From Bacteroidales bacterium (GTDB taxonomy: Bacteria > Bacteroidota > Bacteroidia > Bacteroidales > UBA3663), in assembly GCA_045628525.1 (NCBI GenBank), contig JAZQPJ010000034.1, positions 4,061 to 68,060 of the forward strand: a stretch of 64,000 nt of DNA, written 5' to 3'. Shown here piece by piece: positions 1,684 to 55,469 of the stretch. The translations under genes were made by a program, and so were the position numbers. Below the pieces are notes generated by a model, which saw only the letters and a program-made list of their open reading frames with translations, was not told where the DNA came from and ran no database searches. The first letter of the stretch is position 1, and the number at the start of each line of letters is the position of its first letter.

Positions 1684-3027
1684 TCATGATGCCTTGTTCT
1701 GATCGCTGATAGACAGCGCAATAATGATGGTCAAGCCGCCGCCATCGGTTTCTTCGGCCACGGCACTTCCACCATATTGCACGGCGATGTTCTTGACGAT
1801 GGCAAGGCCAAGACCAGTGCCACCTAACTTGCGGCTTCGCCCTTTATCGACGCGATAGAAGCGCTCGAAGAGGTGGGGGAGGTGTGCAGCAGGTACGCCT
1901 ACGCCATTGTCGCTGAACGTGAAGATGTAGTCAGATGACGTCATTGCAGCAGATACCGTGAAGCGTGTGGCACCCATGGCGTATGCCAGTGTGTTGTCGA
2001 AGATATTGCGAAACAGGGAGTAAATCAGGGCGGAATCGCCTTGCATGGGCATTGAACCAGGGAGCGAAAGCATATCGAGTTCAATGCCTTGTTCTGTGAA
2101 TTTGGCTTTTGTCTCGTCGGCGATGCCTTGCAGGATTTCTGCTGCATCGACTTTGGTCGTAGGGCGTACGATGGCGGCTTCGTCCAGACGTGTGAGCATG
2201 GACATGTCCTGTAGCAAGCGGCTCATGCGCTGGCTTTGCGCATAGCAGCGTGTGAGGAAAGACTGCCGTTGTTGGGCAGAAAGTGAATCGCCGGCAGAGA
2301 TCATCGTCTCAAGGTAGCCTTCGATGGCGGCAGCCGGCGTCTTGAGCTCGTGGGCGGCATTTTCGGTGAGCTGGCGCTTGATGCGACGCTTGTCCTCCTC
2401 GCTGCGATGCAATCTGAACCGAAGATAAAGCACCACGGCTATGAGCACGAGGATGCCTGCGGTGTAATAGAAAAAAGTGTAGTCGCGTTCGAGCGAAGAG
2501 GTAAGAGGGGCGGAATAGGGTACGGACGAGCGGATAATAAGACCCTTTCCCCAACCCTCCTCTGCACCCCTTCTATCCCCCGAACAGCGGGGGCAGAAAT
2601 CCGTAATCGGGAGGGAGTATTGGTTACTATCTATAGCGAAATAGGTTGCCGAATAGAAATACTTTTCACCATTGGTTTCGGACGCTCGCTTAATGTCAAA
2701 TCCAGAACCATACTGAAGGGCATCCTGAATCTCCTTGCGGAGAAGGTGGTTGCCCATTTTCTTTACATCTTTCTCCTGGCTATCATAGAGCACATTTCCT
2801 TCAGTGTCAATTATTGTGATGCGAAATGTGGTATCTATTTCTCCCTCCCCATTACGGGTGAGGGTTGGGGAGAGGGTCCTATAGTTATTGAGCTGCAGCT
2901 GCGAGTGCAGGATATCGACGCGAAACGCATGTTCACGCTGGTATTCATACACGCCGAAGCTGATGGTAAACAATGCCACCAGCAGCGTAACAATCAGAAA
3001 CAGATTATTTTTCGAACGAATATCCAT
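1684..3027 (-). CDS. Sensor histidine kinase (two TM segments, periplasmic sensor region, HisKA + HATPase_c)
   Basis: H-box ENAAHELKTP and G-box GGTGLGLAIVKNI. The start was chosen at MDIRSKNN (ATG 3027, overlapping the regulator's 3' end); ATG 3057 is an alternative. Confidence 0.85.
   Translation of the reverse strand: MDIRSKNNLFLIVTLLVALFTISFGVYEYQREHAFRVDILHSQLQLNNYRTLSPTLTRNGEGEIDTTFRITIIDTEGNVLYDSQEKDVKKMGNHLLRKEIQDALQYGSGFDIKRASETNGEKYFYSATYFAIDSNQYSLPITDFCPRCSGDRRGAEEGWGKGLIIRSSVPYSAPLTSSLERDYTFFYYTAGILVLIAVVLYLRFRLHRSEEDKRRIKRQLTENAAHELKTPAAAIEGYLETMISAGDSLSAQQRQSFLTRCYAQSQRMSRLLQDMSMLTRLDEAAIVRPTTKVDAAEILQGIADETKAKFTEQGIELDMLSLPGSMPMQGDSALIYSLFRNIFDNTLAYAMGATRFTVSAAMTSSDYIFTFSDNGVGVPAAHLPHLFERFYRVDKGRSRKLGGTGLGLAIVKNIAVQYGGSAVAEETDGGGLTIIIALSISDQNKAS
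2541..2617. repeat. C-tract/G-tract palindromic element (long form) inside the kinase sensor region
   Basis: GACCCTTTCCCCAACCCTCC...CCCCCGAACAGCGGGGG...CCGTAATCGGGAGGGAG. It is read through in frame. Confidence 0.75.
2841..2879. repeat. C-tract/G-tract palindromic element (short form, inverted relative to 2541-2617)
   Basis: The reverse complement reads GACCCTCTCCCCAACCCTCACCCGTAATGGGGAGGGAG, with the same termini as the long form. Confidence 0.75.
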
Positions 3028-3983: not shown

Positions 3984-4223
3984 ATGGCAACATTGGCAAT
4001 ACAACCCGAAGCAAATCAGATGGTCGTTACATTCAGCGATGTTAGCGTTATGCAGCAAGTAAAGAAAGCCATCGCACTTATGCGAGGCGTAAAATCGGTT
4101 ACTATGCCTCGCAAGAAGCGTATGTGCGGCCTTGATCTCGCCTTGCAGGACGTAGAAGAAGGACGTGTAACTCGGTGGAATAGTGTGGAAGAGATGTTTG
4201 AGCACTTGAATAAAGAGGATTGA
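3984..4223 (+). CDS. Putative type II antitoxin (DinJ/RelB-like C-terminal segment)
   Basis: A 79-aa ORF ending 3 nt before a YafQ-family toxin gene. Its C-terminal ...QDVEEGRVTRWNSVEEMFEHL resembles the DinJ tail. Confidence 0.65.
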   Translation: MATLAIQPEANQMVVTFSDVSVMQQVKKAIALMRGVKSVTMPRKKRMCGLDLALQDVEEGRVTRWNSVEEMFEHLNKED

Positions 4224-4226
4224 TCC

Positions 4227-4499
4227 ATGTACACAGTCATCACTTCAAAAGCTTTTGAGAAGGATTATAAAAGGTGCCAAAAGCGAGGCTTGAATATTCG
4301 ACTACTTCAGGAAGCAATCACCCTTCTGGCCAATGACGGAAAACTTCCACCAGAATATCGCCCACACATCCTAAGCGGCAAGTATGCCGGCATCTGGGAA
4401 TGCCATATCAAGGGTGACTGGCTCATGACATGGCGACAGTATGATGACCGTCTTGAGCTGCTCATGCTCAATACGGGTACACATTCCGACTTATTTTAG
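4227..4499 (+). CDS. yafQ: Type II toxin, YafQ/RelE family mRNA interferase
   Basis: 90 aa, collinear with E. coli YafQ (KDYKRCQKRG..., ECHIKGDWLM..., C-terminal NTGTHSDLF versus TGTHAALF). Confidence 0.85.
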   Translation: MYTVITSKAFEKDYKRCQKRGLNIRLLQEAITLLANDGKLPPEYRPHILSGKYAGIWECHIKGDWLMTWRQYDDRLELLMLNTGTHSDLF

Positions 4500-4570: not shown

Positions 4571-6253
4571 TTACTTGTTCACAGCAGCTTCTGCCTGCAC
4601 CACATTGATCGCATAGTCGCCTATCTTCTCGCATTCGGCAATGAAGTCGTTGAAGAAGGCGCCGAGGCGGTAGCTGTACTTGCCCTCGTTCACGGCGATG
4701 AGGTTCTCCTCGCGGCTGATGGTGCGCAGGGAGTTGATCTCGTTTTCTGCCTCGATGTTGTCGCGCAGATTGATTACCACGTGTTCAGGGTCGGTGATCA
4801 CCTGACGCATCTCATGCAGGGCGCGCTCGGTGAGGTCGAGCATCTGGGTCATCTGCATCTTCTGGTAGTCGGTGAAGTCGCTCGGCTCATTCTCACGCTT
4901 GCGCTGCAGGGTACGGCCGAGGTGGAACATCGAGTCTCCGATCGACTCCAGCTCGTCCACCTGTCGCAGCATCTGGGCGATGTGGTTCTTCGAGTAAGCC
5001 GAGAGCCTGCCCTCCGACACCTTGCGCAGGTAGCCGGCAATCTCCACCTCCATGTTGTCGGTGATCTGCTCGTAGTGTTCCAGTCGCTTGTATTCCTCGG
5101 CAAAGTCGCTCTCCTTCTTGGCCGAAAGGGCGCGGTTCACCATGTCGAGCATCTTCTGGCAACGCTCGGCCATGACACCCACCTCGTTGCGTGCCTGCAG
5201 GATGGAGAGCTCGGCCGTAGAGAGCAAGCCGCCGCTGATGTAGCGCAGACGTGTCTCCTCCTGCGTCTCCTTCTGAGGCAGCACGCGGCACACCAGCTGC
5301 TCAATCTGCTTGACGAAGCCAATCAATAACAAGGTGTTGAATACGTTGAATGCCGTGTGGAAGGCCGAGAGCTTGAAGAGGTCGTTGTTGCCAGCGCCCA
5401 TCACATGCTCCACGAACCATGACACGCCGTTGCAGAACGGATAGAACATCAGGAGCACCACCACCACGCCGAACACATTGAAGAACATGTGCGCGAGTGC
5501 CGCGCGTCGTGCCTGCGTGTTGGCGGTCAGGGAGGCGATGAATGCCGTGATCGTCGTACCGATGTTCTGACCCATGGCCAAAGCCGCTGCCTGCTCAAGG
5601 CCGAAGCCGGGGATCTGCATGTCGAACAGCATCAACGTGATGGCCATCGTGGCGGCCGATGCCTGAACGAGCATGGTAACCAATGCACCCACTACCACGA
5701 AAAGCAAGATTGTGAGGAAACCGCCATCGGCCACGCCTGCCAGCATCTGTGCCACCAGTTCGCCGATGTTCAGATCGGTGGCCGATTGCTGCAGGAAACT
5801 CAAGCCCATGAACAGGAACGAGAAGCCGAAGATGAACTCGCCGATCGACTTGCGATGCGAATTGCTGCTGAAGATGAGCGGAATGCCAAAGGCAAGCAAC
5901 GGCAACGCCAGGGCGGCGATATTGACCTTGAAACCGACAGCCGAGATGATCCATGCCGTCACCGTGGTGCCCACATTGGCACCCATGATCACGCCGATGG
6001 CTTGTGCCAGCGTCATCAATCCGGCATTGACAAACGAAACGACCATCACCGTGGTGGCCGAAGAGGATTGGATCAAGGCGGTCACGGCAATGCCCGTGAG
6101 AACACCCATCACACGATTGCGCGTCATGGCAGCCAGGATGCTGCGCAGACGATCGCCAGCAAATTTCTCAAGACCCTCGCTCATCGTCTTCATGCCGAAG
6201 AGGAAGAGTGCCAGGGATCCGATCAGGGAGAGGAGATTCAGAATTGTATCCAT
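4571..6253 (-). CDS. Na+/phosphate cotransporter family protein (NptA/YjbB type) with a C-terminal PhoU-like helical domain
   Basis: Duplicated Na_Pi_cotrans motifs (QSSSATTVMVVSF, GANVGTTVTAW; GQNIGTTITAF) and a long helical C-terminal half. Confidence 0.9.
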   Translation of the reverse strand: MDTILNLLSLIGSLALFLFGMKTMSEGLEKFAGDRLRSILAAMTRNRVMGVLTGIAVTALIQSSSATTVMVVSFVNAGLMTLAQAIGVIMGANVGTTVTAWIISAVGFKVNIAALALPLLAFGIPLIFSSNSHRKSIGEFIFGFSFLFMGLSFLQQSATDLNIGELVAQMLAGVADGGFLTILLFVVVGALVTMLVQASAATMAITLMLFDMQIPGFGLEQAAALAMGQNIGTTITAFIASLTANTQARRAALAHMFFNVFGVVVVLLMFYPFCNGVSWFVEHVMGAGNNDLFKLSAFHTAFNVFNTLLLIGFVKQIEQLVCRVLPQKETQEETRLRYISGGLLSTAELSILQARNEVGVMAERCQKMLDMVNRALSAKKESDFAEEYKRLEHYEQITDNMEVEIAGYLRKVSEGRLSAYSKNHIAQMLRQVDELESIGDSMFHLGRTLQRKRENEPSDFTDYQKMQMTQMLDLTERALHEMRQVITDPEHVVINLRDNIEAENEINSLRTISREENLIAVNEGKYSYRLGAFFNDFIAECEKIGDYAINVVQAEAAVNK

Positions 6254-14874: not shown

Positions 14875-15160
14875 TGCAATAGTCCGACTTGGATCTGAGT
14901 CGGACTATTGCAGATCTGCAAAAGCATGTCGCAAGACAGAATATGTAATTGTAAATCTGCAGCAGTCCGACCTGGATCCAAGTCGGACTGCTGCGGCTCT
15001 TCAATAGTCCGACTTGATACCGTGTCGGACTGTCGCGCGTTTGCAATAGTCCGACTTGGTACCGTGTCGGACTGTCGCACGTTTGCAATAGTCCGACTTG
15101 GGTTCAGGTCGGACTGTCGCGCGTTTGCATTAGTCCGACTTGGGTTCAGGTCGGACTTTT
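14875..15160. repeat. Array of six palindromic units (AGTCCGAC-N10-GTCGGACT); the last four are in exact 42-bp register
   Basis: Left half-sites at 14881, 14964, 15006, 15048, 15090 and 15132. A conserved 16-bp linker GTCGCRCGTTTGCAAT separates units; the first two stems extend to 13-14 bp. Confidence 0.9.
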
Positions 15161-15255
15161 GTAAAACTTAAGTGCATTTAAACCTTCTAATACGATCATC
15201 GTCCTAAAGACAAAGAACGAAACTTGTATTATTAACACTTTAATACCTTAGAATT

Positions 15256-31672: not shown

Positions 31673-32719
31673 TTATCTGCGGCCGCCACGTTCACCATGG
31701 CTTCCACCACCGTGGTTGCCGTGGTTGTTGCCGTTGCCTTCGCTACGGTTGCCATGGCTACCTGATGAACGCTCGTGTGAGCGGGTTCCTCCATTGGCTC
31801 GTTGCTCGTGCGAATGAGCGGCCTGGTTTGAACGCTGATCGTGAGAACGGTTGGCAGAAGAGCGTTCCGATGAACGATGCTGCTTTTCAGGGCGGATATT
31901 GCCTTGGTTGCCATGTTTGTTGTTGCCACCTTGGCCAGCATTGCCATGGTTACCGTGGTTGTTTCCGCCGCCTTGACCGGCATTGCCATGGTCGTTGTGA
32001 CCGCCGTTGCTGTGGTCGTTGCGGTTGCCATGACCACCATTGTTGTGACCGCCGTTGCCATGGTTGTTGTTGTGGCCACCAGGACGTGCGTCGTGGTTGT
32101 TGTGTCCGTTGCTGTTATGATGGCCACCATGATCGCGGTGATGGTAACGATTGCCAAAATCGTTGTGACGATGGGTTTCGTAATGAGGACCGCGGAGGAT
32201 AGGAGCGGGGACAGCGTGATGTGGGTGGCTGTAACGATTCACGTAGAAGCCGCCATGATGATGGTGGTGGCTGTGCAGGCCGTGGTAGGTATGATAGCAG
32301 TTGGGCAAACCATAATAGTAATAGTGATGGTTGTGATATACATCATAGATGCGGAATGCCCAGCGACGTGCTGTGGTGTAGATTGGACGGAAGAAATAGT
32401 CCAAACCCATGAAGATGCCGTACTGTGTAGCGTTGAGGATGTAACGCAGATCCTCGTTGCGGTAGTCGAGATAGTCGTAGTATGTGTCGATGGCATCAGA
32501 GTAGCCATACACTACATCGTCCATCAGGTTATTTGCCTCGTAGATGAAGTCGTAGTTGACCTCAAAGCAGTCTTCGTACTGAGCAGGGGTGAGCTGCAAC
32601 TCGTAAGCCATGCGGTCGGTGAGGAAACGTGCTGTCTCACGAATGCGTGCATCGCTCATTGCCATTACGCTCATCAGGGTGAGCAGCGGCAGGGCCAGGG
32701 TTAGAAAAAGTCTTTTCAT
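31673..32719 (-). CDS. Secreted protein with a conserved Tyr-rich N-terminal domain and a very long His/Asn/Gly-rich tail (paralog of 15256-16047)
   Basis: Signal peptide MKRLFLTLALPLLTLMSVMA. The N-terminal domain is homologous to the 15256 product. The tail is full of HGN/HNN/GGH repeats. Confidence 0.8.
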   Translation of the reverse strand: MKRLFLTLALPLLTLMSVMAMSDARIRETARFLTDRMAYELQLTPAQYEDCFEVNYDFIYEANNLMDDVVYGYSDAIDTYYDYLDYRNEDLRYILNATQYGIFMGLDYFFRPIYTTARRWAFRIYDVYHNHHYYYYGLPNCYHTYHGLHSHHHHHGGFYVNRYSHPHHAVPAPILRGPHYETHRHNDFGNRYHHRDHGGHHNSNGHNNHDARPGGHNNNHGNGGHNNGGHGNRNDHSNGGHNDHGNAGQGGGNNHGNHGNAGQGGNNKHGNQGNIRPEKQHRSSERSSANRSHDQRSNQAAHSHEQRANGGTRSHERSSGSHGNRSEGNGNNHGNHGGGSHGERGGRR

Positions 32720-39697: not shown

Positions 39698-39737
39698 AAT
39701 ATTATGTTTTATTGTTGATTATTCAATTTTTAGAAGG

Positions 39738-39975
39738 GTTCTTCGATTCGAGACGTCGAAAAGCATGTCCGGAATCTTGGCGAAGGAATTCGAGTTGTCG
39801 AATAGTTTGTCCGGACCTTGTGACAAGGAATTCGAGCCGTCGAAAAGGCTGTCTGGATTCTTGGACAAGGAATTCGAGCCGTCGAAGAGCCTATCCGAAA
39901 CCTCAGACAAAGATTTCGAGCCGTCGAAAAGCATGTCATAGAACTCTGGCAAAGATTTCGAGACGTCGAACTCTA
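39738..39975. repeat. Tandem array of about 5.6 units in exact 42-bp register (ATTCGAGCCGTCGAAAAGSMTGTCYGGAWYCTTGGMCAAGGA)
   Basis: TTCGAG anchors at 39747, 39789, 39831, 39873, 39915 and 39957. Each unit carries TTCGA-N4-TCGAA and CCTTG/CAAGG mini-palindromes. Confidence 0.9.
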
Positions 39976-39977
39976 TT

Positions 39978-41684
39978 TTATCGTTCTTCAGATGCTGTTA
40001 CTACATTGATGATGTAGTCACCGATCTTTTCGCATTCATTGATGAGCATCATGAAAAACGTACTTTGCTGATATTGCACCTCGTTGCGGTCAAATTGATC
40101 CAATACGGAGTTACGATATTGATTGCGGAAGTTGTTGATCTCGTCCTCGATGTTGAATGCTTTGTTCAGAGCGCTTGACGTCACTTCGTCCATGTCCATC
40201 AGCTTGAGCATGTGCTGCAAGGCATCGTCGGTGAGAGCGAACATCTTGTTTACATTCGTGTTGAGCTCAGGACTGAAGCGTACCCGTTGCTCGCTCTTGC
40301 TGTACAAGGTGGCAGACAGGTGATAGATGGAATCGGCAATGGATTCAAGTTCATCGACGATCTTGTACAGATTGCGACACAACTGCTCACCTTGCCCAGA
40401 CAGCGATTTAGGTGAGATCTTGTTGAGGAAGTCCGCAATTTCCATCTCTGCCCGATCGCTTTCCTGCTCCATCGTCCGCACTTGGTCATCGATCTGCAAC
40501 TGACGCTCAGAACCAAGCGGTTCGGACAACATCTCACGAACAAGCGAGAACATGATATAGACATTCTCACCATATCTTGTCGCTTCTTTCTGCACTTGAG
40601 CCAAAGCCATTTCGCTTGATGAAATGATGCCAGAGGTGATGAATTGCAGCTTGAATGACTGTTCGGAGTCGGGTTCTGTCTCTGGCGTGTTCCTGGAAAC
40701 AAGGCGTACAAACTGATGACGCAAAGGCAACAACAAGAGCATCGTCACGACATTGAAAGCTGTATGGAAAAGGGCCAGACCGGCTGGCATGTTTTCCTGA
40801 AGGTTCGGATTGCCTAAGCCGATGCTTTCGCAGCAATAGGCAATCGTGGATTCTCCGTCTGCCAGTTTTCCATTGAAAATAAAATACAAGCCAAGCATCA
40901 GCAGGAGCACCCAAAGCATTCCAATAAAATTAAATAGGAAATGTAACAGGGCTGCACGTCGTGCCATGGCATTGGCCTTTCGTGCTGCAATCAATGGAGG
41001 TATGCAAGTGCCGATATTGGCCAATACGATGAGTGCGCAGCCAAGATCGAACGATATCCATTCAGACACACACAGCAGTAGGGCGATGAGGAAGGTGATG
41101 GTTGACGAACGGAACAGAACGGTTAGCAGCAATCCGCTCAGCAAGACAACTGATACCGACAATACATACAGATATCCCTCTCCATCGAGCCCCTGGGGCA
41201 ACCACGTACCATCCATCTGGTGGAATGAAACCTGCATGAAGTGGATGCTAATGACCAGAAGTGCTATGCCAATGATCAGTTCACCCCATGAGACAGACGA
41301 TCCCTTGCGGAATCCGAAGAGCGGAATCGTTATGGCAACCAGCGGAAAAGCCCAGAGATAAGCGTCGAAATTGAAGCACAGGAGCGCAATGAGCCAGGCG
41401 GTGATGGTTGTGCCGATGTTGGCACCCATGATGACAGATGCTGATTGCGAAAGCGTGATCAATCCGGCGTTGGTGAACGAAACCGCCATCATGGTTACAG
41501 CAGTTGATGACTGAACCAGAGCGGTGACACCAAGGCCGGTGAACATACCTGTCAGGGCATTGCCTGTCATGGCTGATTGCGCATGACGCAGCACATCACC
41601 CGCAATCTTTTGCAGATTGTCGCTGATGAGCTGCATGGCAAACAGGAAGAGGCCAATGGAGCCGATGAGGGTCAGTAGTGTCAT
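39978..41684 (-). CDS. Na+/phosphate cotransporter family protein (second copy) with a C-terminal PhoU-like domain
   Basis: QSSTAVTMMAVSF and GANIGTTITAW motifs, and the same architecture as 4571-6253. Confidence 0.9.
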   Translation of the reverse strand: MTLLTLIGSIGLFLFAMQLISDNLQKIAGDVLRHAQSAMTGNALTGMFTGLGVTALVQSSTAVTMMAVSFTNAGLITLSQSASVIMGANIGTTITAWLIALLCFNFDAYLWAFPLVAITIPLFGFRKGSSVSWGELIIGIALLVISIHFMQVSFHQMDGTWLPQGLDGEGYLYVLSVSVVLLSGLLLTVLFRSSTITFLIALLLCVSEWISFDLGCALIVLANIGTCIPPLIAARKANAMARRAALLHFLFNFIGMLWVLLLMLGLYFIFNGKLADGESTIAYCCESIGLGNPNLQENMPAGLALFHTAFNVVTMLLLLPLRHQFVRLVSRNTPETEPDSEQSFKLQFITSGIISSSEMALAQVQKEATRYGENVYIMFSLVREMLSEPLGSERQLQIDDQVRTMEQESDRAEMEIADFLNKISPKSLSGQGEQLCRNLYKIVDELESIADSIYHLSATLYSKSEQRVRFSPELNTNVNKMFALTDDALQHMLKLMDMDEVTSSALNKAFNIEDEINNFRNQYRNSVLDQFDRNEVQYQQSTFFMMLINECEKIGDYIINVVTASEER

Positions 41685-50866: not shown

Positions 50867-50949
50867 ATATTATGTTTCAAAAATGAAACAAAGACTACGA
50901 TTTTTGATACCATTTATCACATGTGCACGTATGTTACATAATAACTTAT

Positions 50950-50957
50950 TATCTTTG
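50950..50957 (+). promoter_or_regulatory. -7 promoter box (TATCTTTG) for the GH9 gene
   Basis: Matches TAnnTTTG about 47 nt upstream of ATG 51004. Confidence 0.5.
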
Positions 50958-51003
50958 CAGCGTTGTTTCACATACTCTCATTCATCAAAATATATCAAAT
51001 CTT

Positions 51004-53550
51004 ATGAAAAAACAACTATTCCTAACCCTCGCCGCTGGCTTCCTGCTTGCTTCGTGCAGCGGAAACAAGACTGGCGAACAGGCATTGATGCTGAATGACC
51101 TCGACTATTTCGAGGAGCAGGGCGTGAACGTGCTGGTCTATAGCAACGACTTCAACGGCGGCTTCAATGACGAGAAGAACTCGGGCATCGAGCTCATTCA
51201 CCACGGCGTTCGTACCGTGCAGGGTGGTGCCGTGCGTCTGAACAAGACCCCCGAGCAGTGGGACCTCGTTCCCAAAACCACCAACCGCGTGGTGAATCAT
51301 GAGGACAACTCCATCGAGGTGAGCCTCCGTTACGAAGACTACGATTTCGATTCGCGCGTCGTCGTTACCGGCAAGGGCAAGGCTGTGGAGATTGCCGTCT
51401 ATCTGGACAAGCCCGTGCCAGAGCAGTTGGTGGGCGATGCAGGTTTCAACCTGGAGTTCCTGCCATCGCAGTACTGGGCCAAGACCTACATGATGGATGG
51501 CCGCCTGAACCGCTTCCCACGCATCGCAGCCAGCGAGACCGTCACCCGTCCCAACTCGGAGAAAGCCAAGCAGTTCAAGGGCTTCAAGACCTACGACGAC
51601 CGCGGCACCGACCGCTTCATCGATCCGCTTCCACTCGAGACCGGCCACACCATCCTCATGGCACAGGACGCTCCTGAGCGCATGATCAAGGTCACCAGCG
51701 AGGATGCCGAACTCAAGCTCTACGACGGCCGCATGCTCGCTCAGAACGGCTGGTTTGTGCTCCGTTCTGAGCTCCCGGCAGGCAAGACCGGCAAGGTCAT
51801 CACCTGGACCCTTGAGCCAAACGCCATTCAGGGCTGGGTGCGCGAGCCGAACATCGGCTTCTCACAGGTAGGCTATCTGCCCGAGCAGCCGAAGGTGGCT
51901 GTCATCGAGCTCGACAAGGTCGATCAGCCACGCTCTACCGCCAGCGTCCATCGCGTGATGCCCGACGGCTCTGTAAAGCAGGCTTATAGCGGCAAGACCA
52001 CCACCTGGGGCCGTTACTTCAAGTATAACTATGTGAAGTTCGACTTCTCGGAGGTTACCGAGCCAGGCGTTTACTACATCCAGTATGGCGACACCAAGAC
52101 CAACAACTTCATCATCGACAAGACCGTCTATGACAAGATTACCGATGCAACCAGCGACGTCTGGATCCCAATCCACATGAACCACATGACCGTCAACGAG
52201 GGCTATCGCATCTGGCACGGCGAGCCATTCAAGGAGGGCTACCTCCAGGCTCCTGAGTCTGACCACTTCGACCTCCACTGGCAGAAGCAGTCCGACACCA
52301 AGTACAAGCCATACCAGCTCATCCCAGGCCTGAACGTAGGTGGCTTCTTCGATGCCGGCGACTACGACATCGAGACCGGTTCGAACATCTCCGTTGTGCA
52401 GAACTTCGTATCTGCCTGGGAGCTCTTCCACTCAGAGCGCGACGAGACCTTCGTCAGCCAGGAGCAGCGCTACGTTGACCTGCATCGTCCAGACGGCAAG
52501 CCAGACCTCCTGCAGTTCATCGAGCACGGCACCCTCAACCTTGTGACCCAGGCTGAGGTCATCGGCCACATGTCGCAGACCTTGTCGAACGGTGTACTCG
52601 ACAACTATCACCACCTCGGCGACATCTCGGCCATTACCGATGGTCTGCATTATGACCCATCGCTCAAGCCATACGAGAAGTCAGCCGACGGCAAGCGCAG
52701 CGGCACCAACGACGACCTCTGGGCATTCACCACACGCAATCCTCAGCTTGACTTCCGCGGCGCCACCATGCTCGCAGCTGCCAGCCGTGCGCTTGAGGGT
52801 TACAACGATGCCCTTGCCAAGCGTGCCCTCGTGCAGTCGAAGCGTCTCATGGCCGAGGCTACCGAGCTCATGAAGAAGAACGGTCGCGTGGACAACGAGC
52901 GCGACAGCCTGGCACGTGCTGGCTTCGGCAACATGGCCACCAACCTCCAGCTCTTTGCCGCCACCGGTGAGCAGCAGTACCTTGAAGCCTTCGAGGGCCA
53001 GATCTGGAAGGCTCTCGACCGCAACGTCGAAGCCTCGATCAAGGTGGCACTCGACGGCATCCCATACATGAACGATGCCTATCGCGAGAAGCTCCGTCCA
53101 TACGTCGAGAAGTTCAACGAGAGCATCAAGGCCCTTGAGGAGGACAATCCTTATGGTGTGCCCATCGGCCTCGGCAACTGGGCAGGCAGCACACAGGTTG
53201 CCACCTGGGGTACCACCGTCTGCTTCGCTTCGAAGTATTATCCTGACATTGTGAGCAAGAACGAGGCCTACAAGGCTGCAGCCTGGATCTTCGGCTGTCA
53301 CCCATATCACAACTACTCACTCGTTGCCGCCGTGGGTGCAGCCCGTCCAAAGGCTGTATTCTATGGCAACAACCGCGCCGACTTCTCGTTCATTCCAGGC
53401 AACATGGCACCAGGCCTCCTGTTCCGCAAGCCTGACCACTTCGAGAACTACGACGATTGGCCGTTCCTTTGGGGTCAGAACGAGGGCACCATCGCTGGCA
53501 ATACCCTCTACCTGATCTTCGGTTCTGCTTTCAAGGACCTTGAGAAGTAA
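51004..53550 (+). CDS. Glycoside hydrolase family 9 lipoprotein (N-terminal Ig-like domain + GH9 catalytic domain)
   Basis: Lipobox LLASCSG and the GH9 signature GGFFDAGDYD. The start was set at MKKQLF. Confidence 0.85.
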   Translation: MKKQLFLTLAAGFLLASCSGNKTGEQALMLNDLDYFEEQGVNVLVYSNDFNGGFNDEKNSGIELIHHGVRTVQGGAVRLNKTPEQWDLVPKTTNRVVNHEDNSIEVSLRYEDYDFDSRVVVTGKGKAVEIAVYLDKPVPEQLVGDAGFNLEFLPSQYWAKTYMMDGRLNRFPRIAASETVTRPNSEKAKQFKGFKTYDDRGTDRFIDPLPLETGHTILMAQDAPERMIKVTSEDAELKLYDGRMLAQNGWFVLRSELPAGKTGKVITWTLEPNAIQGWVREPNIGFSQVGYLPEQPKVAVIELDKVDQPRSTASVHRVMPDGSVKQAYSGKTTTWGRYFKYNYVKFDFSEVTEPGVYYIQYGDTKTNNFIIDKTVYDKITDATSDVWIPIHMNHMTVNEGYRIWHGEPFKEGYLQAPESDHFDLHWQKQSDTKYKPYQLIPGLNVGGFFDAGDYDIETGSNISVVQNFVSAWELFHSERDETFVSQEQRYVDLHRPDGKPDLLQFIEHGTLNLVTQAEVIGHMSQTLSNGVLDNYHHLGDISAITDGLHYDPSLKPYEKSADGKRSGTNDDLWAFTTRNPQLDFRGATMLAAASRALEGYNDALAKRALVQSKRLMAEATELMKKNGRVDNERDSLARAGFGNMATNLQLFAATGEQQYLEAFEGQIWKALDRNVEASIKVALDGIPYMNDAYREKLRPYVEKFNESIKALEEDNPYGVPIGLGNWAGSTQVATWGTTVCFASKYYPDIVSKNEAYKAAAWIFGCHPYHNYSLVAAVGAARPKAVFYGNNRADFSFIPGNMAPGLLFRKPDHFENYDDWPFLWGQNEGTIAGNTLYLIFGSAFKDLEK

Positions 53551-53611
53551 TTTGCACCTTTGCTGAAAGTCAAAGAGTTGCAAAAACATTTGTTGCAATC
53601 AAAAAATATTT

Positions 53612-53640
53612 GCGCCCGGCACAAAAAATGTGTCGGGCGC
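53612..53640 (+). terminator. Hairpin terminator after the GH9 gene
   Basis: GCGCCCGGCACA-AAAAA-TGTGTCGGGCGC (one G-U pair), followed by GTTTCGTT. Confidence 0.6.
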
Positions 53641-53652
53641 GTTTCGTTCAGT

Positions 53653-54090
53653 AGCGGTGGCATGTCGAAAGAGATGGAAAAAGCGCTGAAAATGTGCTGA
53701 AAGTTCGCAAATCCATTAGGAATGCCTCTGCAAGTGTGCGGAAGGGCGGAAAATGATTTTTTGCGGCTCAGCAGATCTGCGGAGGGTTTCCAAAAGTTTT
53801 TTTTGCGGCTCCGCACGTTTGCGAAAGCTCTACAAAAAGTTTTTCTGTGACTCTGCAAATCTGCGGAAGCTCTCCAAAAGTTTTTCCAAGGCTCAGCAAA
53901 CTGTCGGAGCTCAGAAAATGTTTTAGCGAAGGTTTTGCAGGTTTGCAGAGGCATTCCTAAAGATTTTGTGTCCGCTCCGCATGTTTGCATCACCTTTTCG
54001 ATGCGATTTGCAGATTCAGTGCGAGCTCGCATCACCTTTTCGATGCGATTTGCAGATTCAATGCAAGTTCGCGTCACTTTTCCTGATGCT
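53653..54090. repeat. Degenerate tandem array of about 10 units holding a 40-42-bp register; the last 2.5 units are near-identical (GCATCACCTTTTCGATGCGATTTGCAGATTCARTGCRAGYTC)
   Basis: Unit anchors at 53695, 53737, 53778, 53820, 53862, 53904, 53944 and 53986/53987, then 54029 and 54071. The final unit runs into the 3' end of the DUF2851 gene. Confidence 0.8.
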
Positions 54091-55387
54091 TGATGAGCCA
54101 GCAGCCAAGTCGGCAATGGAGGCATTTATGAGGCTGGCAATAGTTTTGCGACAGGTGGAGGAGTGCCTGCGTGTCGAGGGCCGACCGTGCAGGGATGCCG
54201 GCCTCAATCCATTGGGTAATGAAGCGGTTCGATTCGGCTGGGAGCTGTTCGAGCAGGGCGAGCGCCTGTTCTGCACGTTCGTCGTCGCCCTGCCAGCGGT
54301 GGTAGGAGAGGAGCGTAGGCACGACGGCGTTGATCAGCACGATCTGGACCGTCTGCTTGCCGATGCCCTTGACCGAGAAGATGCGTTGCAGCTCGTCGAG
54401 CGACTTGGCTTCGAGCGTCTCGCTCAGCAGGTTGGGATGCGTCCAGATGAGGGCGGCAAACGCATCGAGTCGGCATTGTGGCGTGGCTTGTGGACGCAGT
54501 CGGCTCATGCGCCAGGCTGTCGGGTCGATGGGTGTGAGGCTGAATTTGTTGCGAAGGAAGTTGTATTCCTGCTCCAGTTGTCGGCCTTCGGGGGTGGTGA
54601 AGTCGATGAGCCCTGCCTGACCGAGCAGCATGGCGCGCAGCTGGAAGAGGTTGTCGCGATGGTGCAGCAGGCAGCTGTATGGGAGGCTGCGGGCAAGGCG
54701 CTCCATGGCATCGCTGTTGGTGCCCGAGCCGAGGCTACGGAGCAGGATGGTGTAGAAGGCCTCTTCCCACGACTTCATGTCGGTCTGAACCACCTGTTGC
54801 ACACGTTGCATCTTGCCCAACATGCGCTGGATGGCCAGGGCGTTGATCCAGTCGTGCAGGACGATGGCGGGAACCTCGGTGACGCGTGGGCGGCAGTACA
54901 GGAGGGAGCCCGGAGTGAAGGGGGAGGGGTTGCCGGGAATCAGGGGCTTCGTAGCAGATGCCGGCGAAACTGCGTCAACGGAGACAGACTCTGGTGAAAG
55001 AGGGTCAACAGCCGAGGTGCCGGCAGGGACGCAGAGCGCATAGTAGCGGCGCATCACGTCGTTGGGAATGTGCATCACCACGGTCTTGAGTTCGGTGCCA
55101 TCGTGCAGGTGGATCTGCGCATCGGCCTGAAGCACGACGTGGAGGATCACGGAATCGTAGGCGCGGTTGTCCTGATGATGGTGGCGGTACCAGTCGGAAG
55201 CCTTGACGTGCATCTCCACGTTGCCCGCCCAGGTCACGCCGTCGTAGCGCACCTTGGCGTTGAAGAAGTCAGGGCCGACCTCATGGTTGCGAAGGCCGGG
55301 ATGAATGACCTCGAGCGGCTGTCCGTCGAGTGTCACGATGCTATTGAACAGGCGTTGCTGCCACACGAAATACATGAGCTCCTCCAT
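54074..55387 (-). CDS. DUF2851-family protein
   Basis: Starts MEELMYFVWQQRLF... and has HPGLRN..GPDF and VEMHVKASDWYRHHH. The start was set at ATG 55387 downstream of a -7 box. Confidence 0.8.
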   Translation of the reverse strand: MEELMYFVWQQRLFNSIVTLDGQPLEVIHPGLRNHEVGPDFFNAKVRYDGVTWAGNVEMHVKASDWYRHHHQDNRAYDSVILHVVLQADAQIHLHDGTELKTVVMHIPNDVMRRYYALCVPAGTSAVDPLSPESVSVDAVSPASATKPLIPGNPSPFTPGSLLYCRPRVTEVPAIVLHDWINALAIQRMLGKMQRVQQVVQTDMKSWEEAFYTILLRSLGSGTNSDAMERLARSLPYSCLLHHRDNLFQLRAMLLGQAGLIDFTTPEGRQLEQEYNFLRNKFSLTPIDPTAWRMSRLRPQATPQCRLDAFAALIWTHPNLLSETLEAKSLDELQRIFSVKGIGKQTVQIVLINAVVPTLLSYHRWQGDDERAEQALALLEQLPAESNRFITQWIEAGIPARSALDTQALLHLSQNYCQPHKCLHCRLGCWLIKHQEK

Positions 55388-55469
55388 GCTGTTTCTGGTG
55401 CTTGTGATGTTGGTTTCGACTGCTCCATTCCTTGCCATTTTGCGCAAAAAACGGAGCATTAGGATGGGG

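Follow-up and report, generated by a model that had tools for sequence, protein, structure and literature searches.

A degenerate 42-bp tandem repeat array beside a DUF2851 gene of an uncultured Bacteroidales bacterium, a candidate decaying minisatellite

Introduction

In Porphyromonas gingivalis, MITEPgRS (MITE464), one of the miniature transposable elements with inverted repeats (MITEs), is strictly intergenic, occupies many loci, and carries a tandem repeat termed Repeat C in up to 14 copies (PMC2575886), with a Repeat C unit of 41 nt (PMC4596501). The element is bounded by IS5-type terminal inverted repeats (TIRs), GAGACTGTTGCA/TGCAACGGTCTC, and the inner flanks, repeats A and B, are direct repeats (PMC2575886). 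BrickBuilt of the same species is a 23-nt minisatellite that belongs to a MITE and is restricted to the species; it has 19 dispersed intergenic copies, its units are imperfect and its copy number varies, it possesses leader and tail segments and IS5-like TIRs, its bidirectional promoter activity was shown experimentally, and open reading frames (ORFs) are mis-predicted across its repeats by annotation pipelines (PMC4596501). Here we describe an array of about ten 42-bp units at positions 53653-54090 of a 64,000-nt stretch (the window) of contig JAZQPJ010000034.1 from a Bacteroidales bacterium (assembly GCA_045628525.1), located between the convergent genes for a GH9-like glycoside hydrolase and a DUF2851 protein. 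MITEPgRS and BrickBuilt are its closest described relatives, but membership in either is not supported. The likeness to MITEPgRS, compared by description only, lies in the host order, the intergenic location, a unit length 1 nt off (41 versus 42) and a similar array size, and the likeness to BrickBuilt lies in being an intergenic Bacteroidales minisatellite with imperfect units and spurious ORF calls. A literature search on 42-bp tandem repeats in Bacteroidales returned nothing specific.

With moderate confidence, we regard the array as a non-coding, hairpin-bearing minisatellite, one copy of a dispersed 42-bp intergenic family in uncultured rumen Bacteroidales.

Results

Periodicity and anatomy of the array

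The lag-42 autocorrelation of 53653-54090 was 0.53 (z=12.6 versus shuffles), and the region holds ~10.4 units with a period of 42 bp. An earlier inspection of the letters and their ORFs (the sequence-only reading) had described this region as the third, degenerate tandem array of the window, and its observation of a 42-bp periodic array was confirmed, while its interpretation of the array as a whole is partly supported. The signal extends beyond the two nearly identical units at the DUF2851-proximal end, as the lag-42 autocorrelation over 53653-53986, which excludes them, was 0.49 (z=9.3); the sequence-only reading thus passed the refuting test that it had set, a missing 42-bp peak outside the last two units. 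Tandem Repeats Finder agreed with the autocorrelation, reporting period 42 in the older part (53757-53912, 3.8 copies, 74-75% matches) and in the DUF2851-proximal part (53987-54082, 2.3 copies, 90%). The unit anchors proposed earlier were correct within 0-2 nt, with spacings of 42, 41, 42, 42, 40-42 and 42. The window has 18 intergenic gaps of more than 140 bp, and the 42-bp signal was strong in only three of them (14849-15255, 39698-39977 and the gap of the studied array); the array is a genuine third member of this set. The array and its flanks contain the following features.

50923-53550, plus strand: GH9-like glycoside hydrolase gene (CelD_N and Glyco_hydro_9; ORF and Pfam), a flank outside the repeat
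53603-53641, both strands: bidirectional intrinsic-terminator hairpin with a 13-bp stem at 53611-53641 (terminator scan and inverted-repeat search)
53653-53736, minus strand: two leftmost, weakly periodic units, including the left inverted-repeat arm at 53674-53733, an inverted copy of 53943-54002
53737-53943, plus strand: five old direct units with spacings of 41, 42, 42, 40 and 42 (Tandem Repeats Finder and 42-nt row layout)
53944-53986, plus strand: one old unit with the right inverted-repeat arm (TTGCAGAGGCATTCCTAA), an arm conserved in the relative L002
53987-54070, plus strand: two young units, 93% identical to each other and hypervariable between strains
54071-54090, plus strand: final partial unit, which includes the DUF2851 stop codon (54074-54076, minus strand) and the four codons before it (H-Q-E-K)
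54074-55459, minus strand: DUF2851 gene (Pfam PF11013, E=2e-105)

The convergent setting, with the GH9-like gene ending at 53550 on the plus strand and DUF2851 on the minus strand, had been recognised correctly, as had the overlap of the final partial unit with the last codons and TGA stop of DUF2851. The middle of the array, 53737-53986, comprises six old direct units altogether, with a consensus of approximately TGCGGAAGCTCTCCAAAAGTTTTTyynnGGCTCAGCAAATC for 53737-53943. Every old-unit boundary contains a small GCA-N4-TGC hairpin, better paired on the plus strand via G.T. Each young unit contains the hairpins GCATC-N8-GATGC and TTGCA-N7-TGCRA, the loop of the former being 8 nt and not 7 nt as first described, and the counterpart of the DUF2851 gene end in L002 carries a perfect hairpin, GCATC-AGGAGAAGT-GATGC. 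The last 2.3 units are near-identical as had been stated (90-93% alike), and the palindrome GCGAGCTCGC, thought to be part of each unit, has a single occurrence.

The count of about ten units includes the two leftmost ones, which are weakly periodic (z=4.0) and inverted relative to 53943-54002. The inverted arms (53674-53733 and 53943-54002), 60 nt each, are complementary at 73% of positions; their alignment scores 56, compared with 18.8 +/- 3.3 for shuffled sequences, and they share an exact inverted 18-mer, TTGCAGAGGCATTCCTAA, at 53716-53733 and 53943-53960, which is present nowhere else in the window. The alignment of the array to its own reverse complement was strong over longer range; short-range dyad symmetry within the array was at chance, with 3 centres versus 3.0 expected.

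On the plus strand, the terminator hairpin at 53611-53641 is followed by a T-rich tail, and on the minus strand the terminator scan identified a shorter sub-stem, 53625-53609, followed by a T-run. As the minus-strand terminator lies beyond the array, at 53641-53611, the DUF2851 transcript would cross the whole array, which is probably a ~460-nt 3′ untranslated region (UTR) of DUF2851 reaching the bidirectional terminator.

Evolution of the array within and between species

The array was compared among five strains (the window, L001, L034, L035 and L036), in all of which its length is identical, without indels. Of the 334 columns of the old units, 15 were variable (4.5%), compared with 14 of the 87 columns of the young units (16%), and the pairwise third-codon divergence of DUF2851 between these strains was ~4%. 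Relatives are present in the samples SRR21150872, SRR21151046 and ERZ27247141. Two contigs from another species, L002 and L003, encode DUF2851 proteins with 90% amino acid identity to that of the window over aligned residues and carry the array at 4164-4348 and 2070-2244, respectively. Both contigs stop ~180 bp into the array; as contig ends inside the array fit short-read assemblies breaking at repeats, copy numbers from public metagenome-assembled genomes (MAGs) need care.

The alignment between the window and L002 is gap-free over ~215 bp. The old units are 72% and the young units 60% identical to those of L002, compared with 69% identity at the four-fold degenerate sites of DUF2851. Judged from the closeness of their value to that of the four-fold sites, the old units drift at an approximately neutral rate. 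The two units that are young in the window are dissimilar to each other in L002, so their 93% identity represents a homogenisation specific to the window lineage, by gene conversion or re-duplication.

Sequence identity between the older units is low, and from the persistence of the register the sequence-only reading had proposed selection on spacing rather than sequence. The 42-bp period does hold, but the 41- and 40-bp spacings correspond to two indel events in ~8 old units. A length constraint deduced from the gap-free L002 alignment was ruled out by a control intergenic region in the same two genomes, where one 2-nt indel in ~200 bp gives a similar indel density. The proposal was therefore not borne out: the 41- and 40-bp slips and the ordinary indel density fit neutral decay, in keeping with the drift relative to L002, and provide no evidence for spacing selection in the studied array. 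Gene conversion between units, of the kind seen in the window lineage, would keep the register automatically.

In lineages intermediate between the window and a group of relatives around L007, a convergent gene abuts DUF2851, leaving no gap at the site. The presence of the array at this site is thus patchy, as expected for insertion or expansion.

Related arrays in the window and at other loci

The two other intergenic arrays in the window are as follows.

14875-15160, plus strand: 42-bp array A1, with six hairpins AGTCCGAC-N10-GTCGGACT and a 16-nt linker
39746-39970, plus strand: 42-bp array A2, with the unit core TTCGAGNCGTCGAA

A1 is located between a PHO4 transporter gene and a gene for a 263-aa protein; the neighbours of A2 are a Na/Pi-PhoU gene and the gene for thymidine kinase. 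A1 and the studied array have 13 same-orientation 8-mers in common versus 2.1 expected (p ~0.005), including CGCACGTTTGC and GCAGATCTGC, which relates the studied array to that at 14875. The 11-nt identity between the two arrays noticed earlier, CGCACGTTTGC, was real but had been placed at 53810-53820; exact copies occur in the whole window only at 53812-53822 and 15076-15086. A1 and A2 have the 11-mer AAAAGCATGTC in common, and the palindromes differ among the three arrays of the window.

A1 and A2 are each directly downstream of a phosphate-transporter gene (PHO4, 12578-14848; Na/Pi-PhoU, 39978-41684), and elsewhere in the window are another Na/Pi-PhoU gene (4571-6253) and the gene for a phosphate-selective porin (11408-12538). 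The location of arrays beside phosphate-transporter genes may be a coincidence or may reflect a link to phosphate regulation.

A 205-aa ORF (53508-54125, minus strand) spans the studied array, and an exhaustive phmmer search with its product reached P0128, the translation of another array at locus L121 (Logan SRR21150872). The L121 array (~1745-2033, reverse strand) consists of 6-7 units of the studied-array type, CGGAGGGTTCGCAAAAGTTTTTTCTGCG..CGCAGATGTG, with an 84-bp super-period, and its units are up to 32/42 identical to the unit at 53778, with the common word CAAAAGTTTTTTnTGCG. A gene and a strong terminator hairpin precede it, an order like that at the studied array. The loop and 3′ arm of the L121 hairpin carry TATATTTGCGCC, and the window counterpart is a -7-like box, AATATTTGCGCC, which precedes the terminator hairpin at 53603-53614, in the same relative position; the box ATATTTGCGCC is common to the studied locus and the hairpin upstream of the L121 array. 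From this resemblance, TATATTTGCGCC/AATATTTGCGCC may be a promoter box. Unit-by-unit collinearity between the two arrays was rejected, as the identity matrix showed no clear diagonal, and the arrays have a unit family in common rather than deriving from a whole element that was copied. At L115, a more distant locus, six degenerate units form an array that, read as its reverse complement, agrees with the middle unit at 24/41 positions. The gap holding this array is only 25-53 bp in L004 and L117, where the orthologous sites are empty.

Arrays with 42- and 84-bp periods across the clade

In a survey of DUF2851 loci, 29 in number and taken from GTDB species representatives, 42 was the most frequent of the tandem-repeat periods of at least 20 bp, followed by 84, and all 42/84-bp arrays belonged to a clade with at least 53% DUF2851 identity, composed of rumen/gut Bacteroidales MAGs. 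Arrays directly follow DUF2851 in L007-L012 (9-10 units of 42 bp or 5.4 units of 84 bp) and precede it in L004 and L006. The matching position and period had first pointed to an array conserved since ancient times, but orthology of the studied array with the arrays following DUF2851 in L007-L012 was rejected. Because the intermediate lineages have no gap and an nhmmer profile of the L007-type unit (GTCCAATT family) found no match in the window, the position after DUF2851 in the window and in the L007 group is more likely to result from independent gains. DUF2851 adjacency, seen in 3-4 of ~12 lineages, was not significantly above the background array density (rough estimate, p ~0.1).

A metagenome scan for the pattern GTCC-N18-GGAC-N16 repeated three times detected 78 loci, ~48 of which are arrays with the invariant stem GTCCAATT...AATTGGAC. 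This family (JGI metagenome contigs L037-L114, e.g. L060 3682-4101 and L072 7714-8175) comes from rumen metagenomes. Its unit is GTCCAATT-N10-AATTGGAC, with a loop beginning TAC and a linker centred on CGATTG, and loops and linkers are otherwise locus-specific. The arrays typically contain 9-11 units, though unit counts of related arrays derive from short-read assemblies and may be biased, and they occur in at least six gene contexts (convergent, divergent and tandem) in either orientation. No flanking sequence, leader or tail was found in common among the GTCCAATT arrays and related arrays. The stem variant GTCCATTT is common and gives an uncompensated T.T mismatch. Hairpin potential was significant in most, but not all, unit types of related arrays and was not significant for the middle-unit consensus of the studied array. 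Plasmid origin was ruled out by the lack of a match in 72,556 plasmids, and phage origin by the lack of 42-bp GTCC...GGAC arrays in viral contigs, in which the AGTCCGAC hairpin generated single chance matches only.

Some loci of the survey carry compound arrays. In a 70%-identity relative, three unrelated arrays in a row, with units of 49 bp (2.7 copies), ~42 bp (7 copies) and 42 bp (5 copies), take up the divergent gap that lies upstream of DUF2851 (L004 6906-7773 = L006 8924-9791). The 84-bp units at L005 13344-13681 and downstream of DUF2851 in L010-L012 are composed of two different hairpins of 42 bp each, TTGACAC..GTGTCAA and GAGGGGCAAAA..TTTTGCCCCTC in L005, and GTCCAATT..AATTGGAC and GCATAC..GTATGC in L010-L012.

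Discussion

Origin as a decaying dispersed minisatellite

In the minisatellite origin that we favour, slippage during replication or unequal recombination would have multiplied a hairpin-bearing 42-bp unit at its site, and gene conversion would temporarily have limited divergence between neighbouring units. Each of these processes would preserve unit length. Once turnover stops, the units would diverge at the neutral rate; in the studied array, turnover would continue at the DUF2851-proximal end only, and the 42-bp register would be inherited, not selected. Such an origin would account for the neutral rate of the old units, the 41- and 40-bp slips and the hypervariable, recently homogenised gene-proximal end, as well as for the patchy phylogenetic presence, the indifference to orientation and the second locus.

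Several observations weigh against this origin. Exact 42/84-bp periods recur in arrays without detectable sequence kinship, a recurrence that calls for very rapid divergence if pure descent is to explain it. Variability at the 16 stem positions of the GTCCAATT family is ~8x lower than in the loop and linker, and the stem does not vary between its six or more loci, which suggests either selection or templated self-correction of palindromes. The copy number lies near 9-11 units in many arrays, a figure that short-read assembly may bias. L121 comes from the sample series of strain L034 and may belong to a genome other than that of the window. No transposase, TIR or target-site duplication that would explain dispersal was found, target-site duplications being unreadable without an empty site. 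Neutral processes that might explain the recurring periods and the invariant stem are fast divergence from a single founder unit and templated self-correction of palindromes. A constraint on unit length is hinted at only by the class-wide 42/84-bp periods, which shared descent explains equally well.

Alternative explanations

The array could instead be a helically phased DNA-binding array. Forty-two base pairs are four turns of B-DNA, and the palindromes, one per unit, would lie on one helix face, allowing a dimeric DNA-binding or nucleoid-associated protein to polymerise over ~420 bp, much as at the sopC centromere of the F plasmid or at iteron arrays. The class as a whole offers several points in favour: 42/84-bp periods dominate the intergenic arrays across sequence-unrelated families, with typically 9-11 units per array and a 21-bp sub-structure within units; the GTCCAATT stem is invariant across loci and species in its sequence and not just in its pairing, and the uncompensated T.T mismatch of GTCCATTT makes it resemble a protein half-site more than an RNA stem; and the arrays occur in either orientation, also between convergent terminators, where transcription should be low. 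The studied array itself fits poorly, as its old units evolve at the neutral rate, its register slips by 41- and 40-bp spacings, its short-range dyads are at chance, and its closest GTDB relatives have no array at the site. No partition gene or candidate binding protein is adjacent, and the differing palindromes of arrays in one genome would need a separate reader for each. Phased binding is a live alternative for the array class but is not well supported for the studied array, and we consider it rather unlikely. A broader version, to which we give a lower probability again, envisages a genome-wide system of phased palindrome arrays in uncultured rumen Bacteroidales, with units of exactly four or eight helical turns (42 or 84 bp), ~10 per array, at several loci per chromosome. 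On these arrays a DNA-binding protein that reads structure or sequence would assemble, for example for chromosome organisation, centromere-like sites or transcriptional insulators, and 53653-54090 would be a diverged, possibly retired member.

Two explanations based on expression of the array are less likely than either a minisatellite or a phased-binding array. A structured or processed plus-strand non-coding RNA (ncRNA), starting from the box ATATTTGCGCC (53603-53614), running antisense to the DUF2851 3′ end and perhaps cut in the manner of ToxI, seems improbable to us. The plus strand does fold better than the minus strand, both over the whole array (-173 kcal/mol, z=-6.2, versus -141, z=-4.4) and in local folds (-129.9 versus -97.5 kcal/mol), because many stem positions are G.T on the plus strand and A.C on the minus strand. 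The order of box, hairpin and array is repeated at L121, and arrays of the studied type follow a gene and a terminator in both known cases. However, nothing in the window or in six related loci reached a gathering score in Rfam 15, which ruled out a known RNA family; the best match below the threshold overlapped the terminator only. A scan for sigma-70-type promoters found none; Bacteroides promoters have -33/-7 boxes with a usual spacing of 19-21 nt, and the spacing proposed here, 22 nt, falls outside that range. The terminator scan found no plus-strand terminator after the array, no nuclease or toxin gene lies downstream, and the evolutionary rate is neutral. Covariation was not found either: strain changes break the 18-bp long-range pairing, and an apparently compensatory hairpin change in L001 (GCATC..GATGC to GTATC..GATAC) was rejected, since three other strains show C, C and A opposite the same A, which indicates a hypervariable site. 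A test for a clustered regularly interspaced short palindromic repeats (CRISPR) array was also negative, as whole 42-bp units repeat without unique spacers and the Rfam scan found no CRISPR RNA family. A protein with 14-residue repeats encoded by the 205-aa ORF is highly improbable. None of the five strains interrupts the ORF, public assemblies annotate it as a gene, and phmmer gave weak repeat-to-repeat matches, e.g. KNFWRxSxxL in P0128 and P0129. An open frame is expected to extend across units, as 42 is a multiple of 3 and a stop-free unit stays stop-free. P0128 is simply the translated L121 array. Variants among the five strains comprised 14 synonymous and 19 non-synonymous changes, and other frames were no worse, two of them scoring the same; unit-level tests on related arrays found no clear coding frame. 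The ORF also runs through the terminator hairpin and overlaps the ends of both flanking genes, its product has no Pfam domain, and a word-indexed search of 5.8 billion proteins returned a same-species match only. Coding by the array was ruled out on the substitution counts between strains and between units, and because neither a Pfam domain nor a homologue beyond the species was found. The spurious 205-aa protein is listed in NCBI and Logan assemblies (P0121-P0124), an annotation artefact propagating in protein databases.

Significance and other repeats in the data

If it is a dispersed intergenic bacterial minisatellite, the studied array belongs to a kind already known and is, on its own, ordinary decaying repetitive DNA. 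Its practical effects are that short-read assemblies are broken, that a spurious 205-aa protein enters databases, and that a conserved gene is supplied with its stop codon. The 42/84-bp hairpin arrays as a whole appear to form an undescribed class that is common in rumen Bacteroidales MAGs. Should their fixed unit length be functional, they would constitute a new kind of chromosomal protein-binding lattice; otherwise, they would provide a case of minisatellite birth, homogenisation and decay, and potential variable-number tandem repeat (VNTR) markers for strain typing of uncultured rumen species.

Other tandem repeats in the window lie within genes. A 42/24-bp repeat at 31898-32070 is inside a Gly/Asn/His-rich ORF (31673-32719, minus strand) without a Pfam match; it is coding and unrelated to the intergenic arrays despite the equal period. 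A Schlafen AlbA_2/HATPase_c_4 gene (9597-11081) contains a 33-bp repeat at 10754-10876 (3.7 copies, 95% matches). A GH42/GH35-like gene (12-1634), which generated a weak collagen-repeat match in Pfam, contains repeats of 9, 18 and 27 bp at 445-516, 522-553, 1017-1058 and 1397-1471 (GTTCGAAGG and relatives). L120, a 494-kb contig from an unrelated organism (ENA ERZ26222911), contains dense long tandem repeats at 1-545, 1352-2029 and 4180-4422 (62 bp x 8.8, 77 bp x 8.7 and 42/21 bp x 5.8).

Comparison with known elements

The studied array differs from MITEPgRS in that its flanking units are inverted, whereas repeats A and B of MITEPgRS are direct. The IS5-type TIR (GAGACyNTTGCA ... TGCAAnrGTCTC) had no match with up to 2 mismatches in 53550-54100, and matches across the whole window were at chance level (33 versus 38 expected). 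The inverted arms of the studied array consist of repeat units, and no MITEPgRS-like TIRs flank the GTCCAATT arrays. The 23-nt unit and the leader and tail of BrickBuilt set it apart from the studied array, with its 42-bp unit and related arrays that have no common leader or tail.

Repetitive extragenic palindromes (REPs) and bacterial interspersed mosaic elements (BIMEs) of enterobacteria and pseudomonads are located in intergenic regions and 3′ UTRs in either orientation, with proposed roles in mRNA 3′-end stabilisation and in binding gyrase and integration host factor. REPs have one sequence genome-wide, alternate in orientation in BIMEs, and are linked to REP-associated tyrosine transposases (RAYTs). 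REP super-families are recognised (PMC3733652). The studied units, in contrast, are arranged head-to-tail with a fixed 42-bp period and a sequence that differs between arrays, and no transposase (RAYT) was found among ~28 window ORFs scanned against Pfam.

VNTRs of the mycobacterial interspersed repetitive unit (MIRU) type in Mycobacterium tuberculosis are 40-100-bp tandem repeats at dozens of intergenic loci, often with lengths that are multiples of 3; MIRU ends overlap flanking stop or start codons, and MIRUs lie mainly inside operons. The last unit of the studied array likewise supplies the DUF2851 stop codon, but MIRUs belong to another phylum, show no emphasis on hairpins, and vary in copy number between strains, whereas the five strains here are identical. 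The sopC centromere of the F plasmid, located beside sopAB, consists of 12 x 43 bp with an inverted repeat in each unit bound by SopB. Its unit length and copy number are nearly equal to those of the studied array, also with one palindrome per unit, but sopC is plasmid-borne, whereas the studied array is chromosomal, flanked by housekeeping genes, and has counterparts with different palindromes at several loci; a Pfam scan of the neighbours found no partition genes (parA/parB type) near it. ToxI repeats of type III toxin-antitoxin systems are tandem 34-45-nt repeats producing a structured RNA, in the order promoter, repeats, terminator, ToxN-family gene. The studied array has tandem repeats of comparable length with structured units, but on the plus strand the terminator stands before and not after it, and its neighbours are the GH9-like and DUF2851 genes, with no ToxN/AbiQ toxin. 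The likenesses to REP/BIME, MIRU, sopC and ToxI are functional analogies only.

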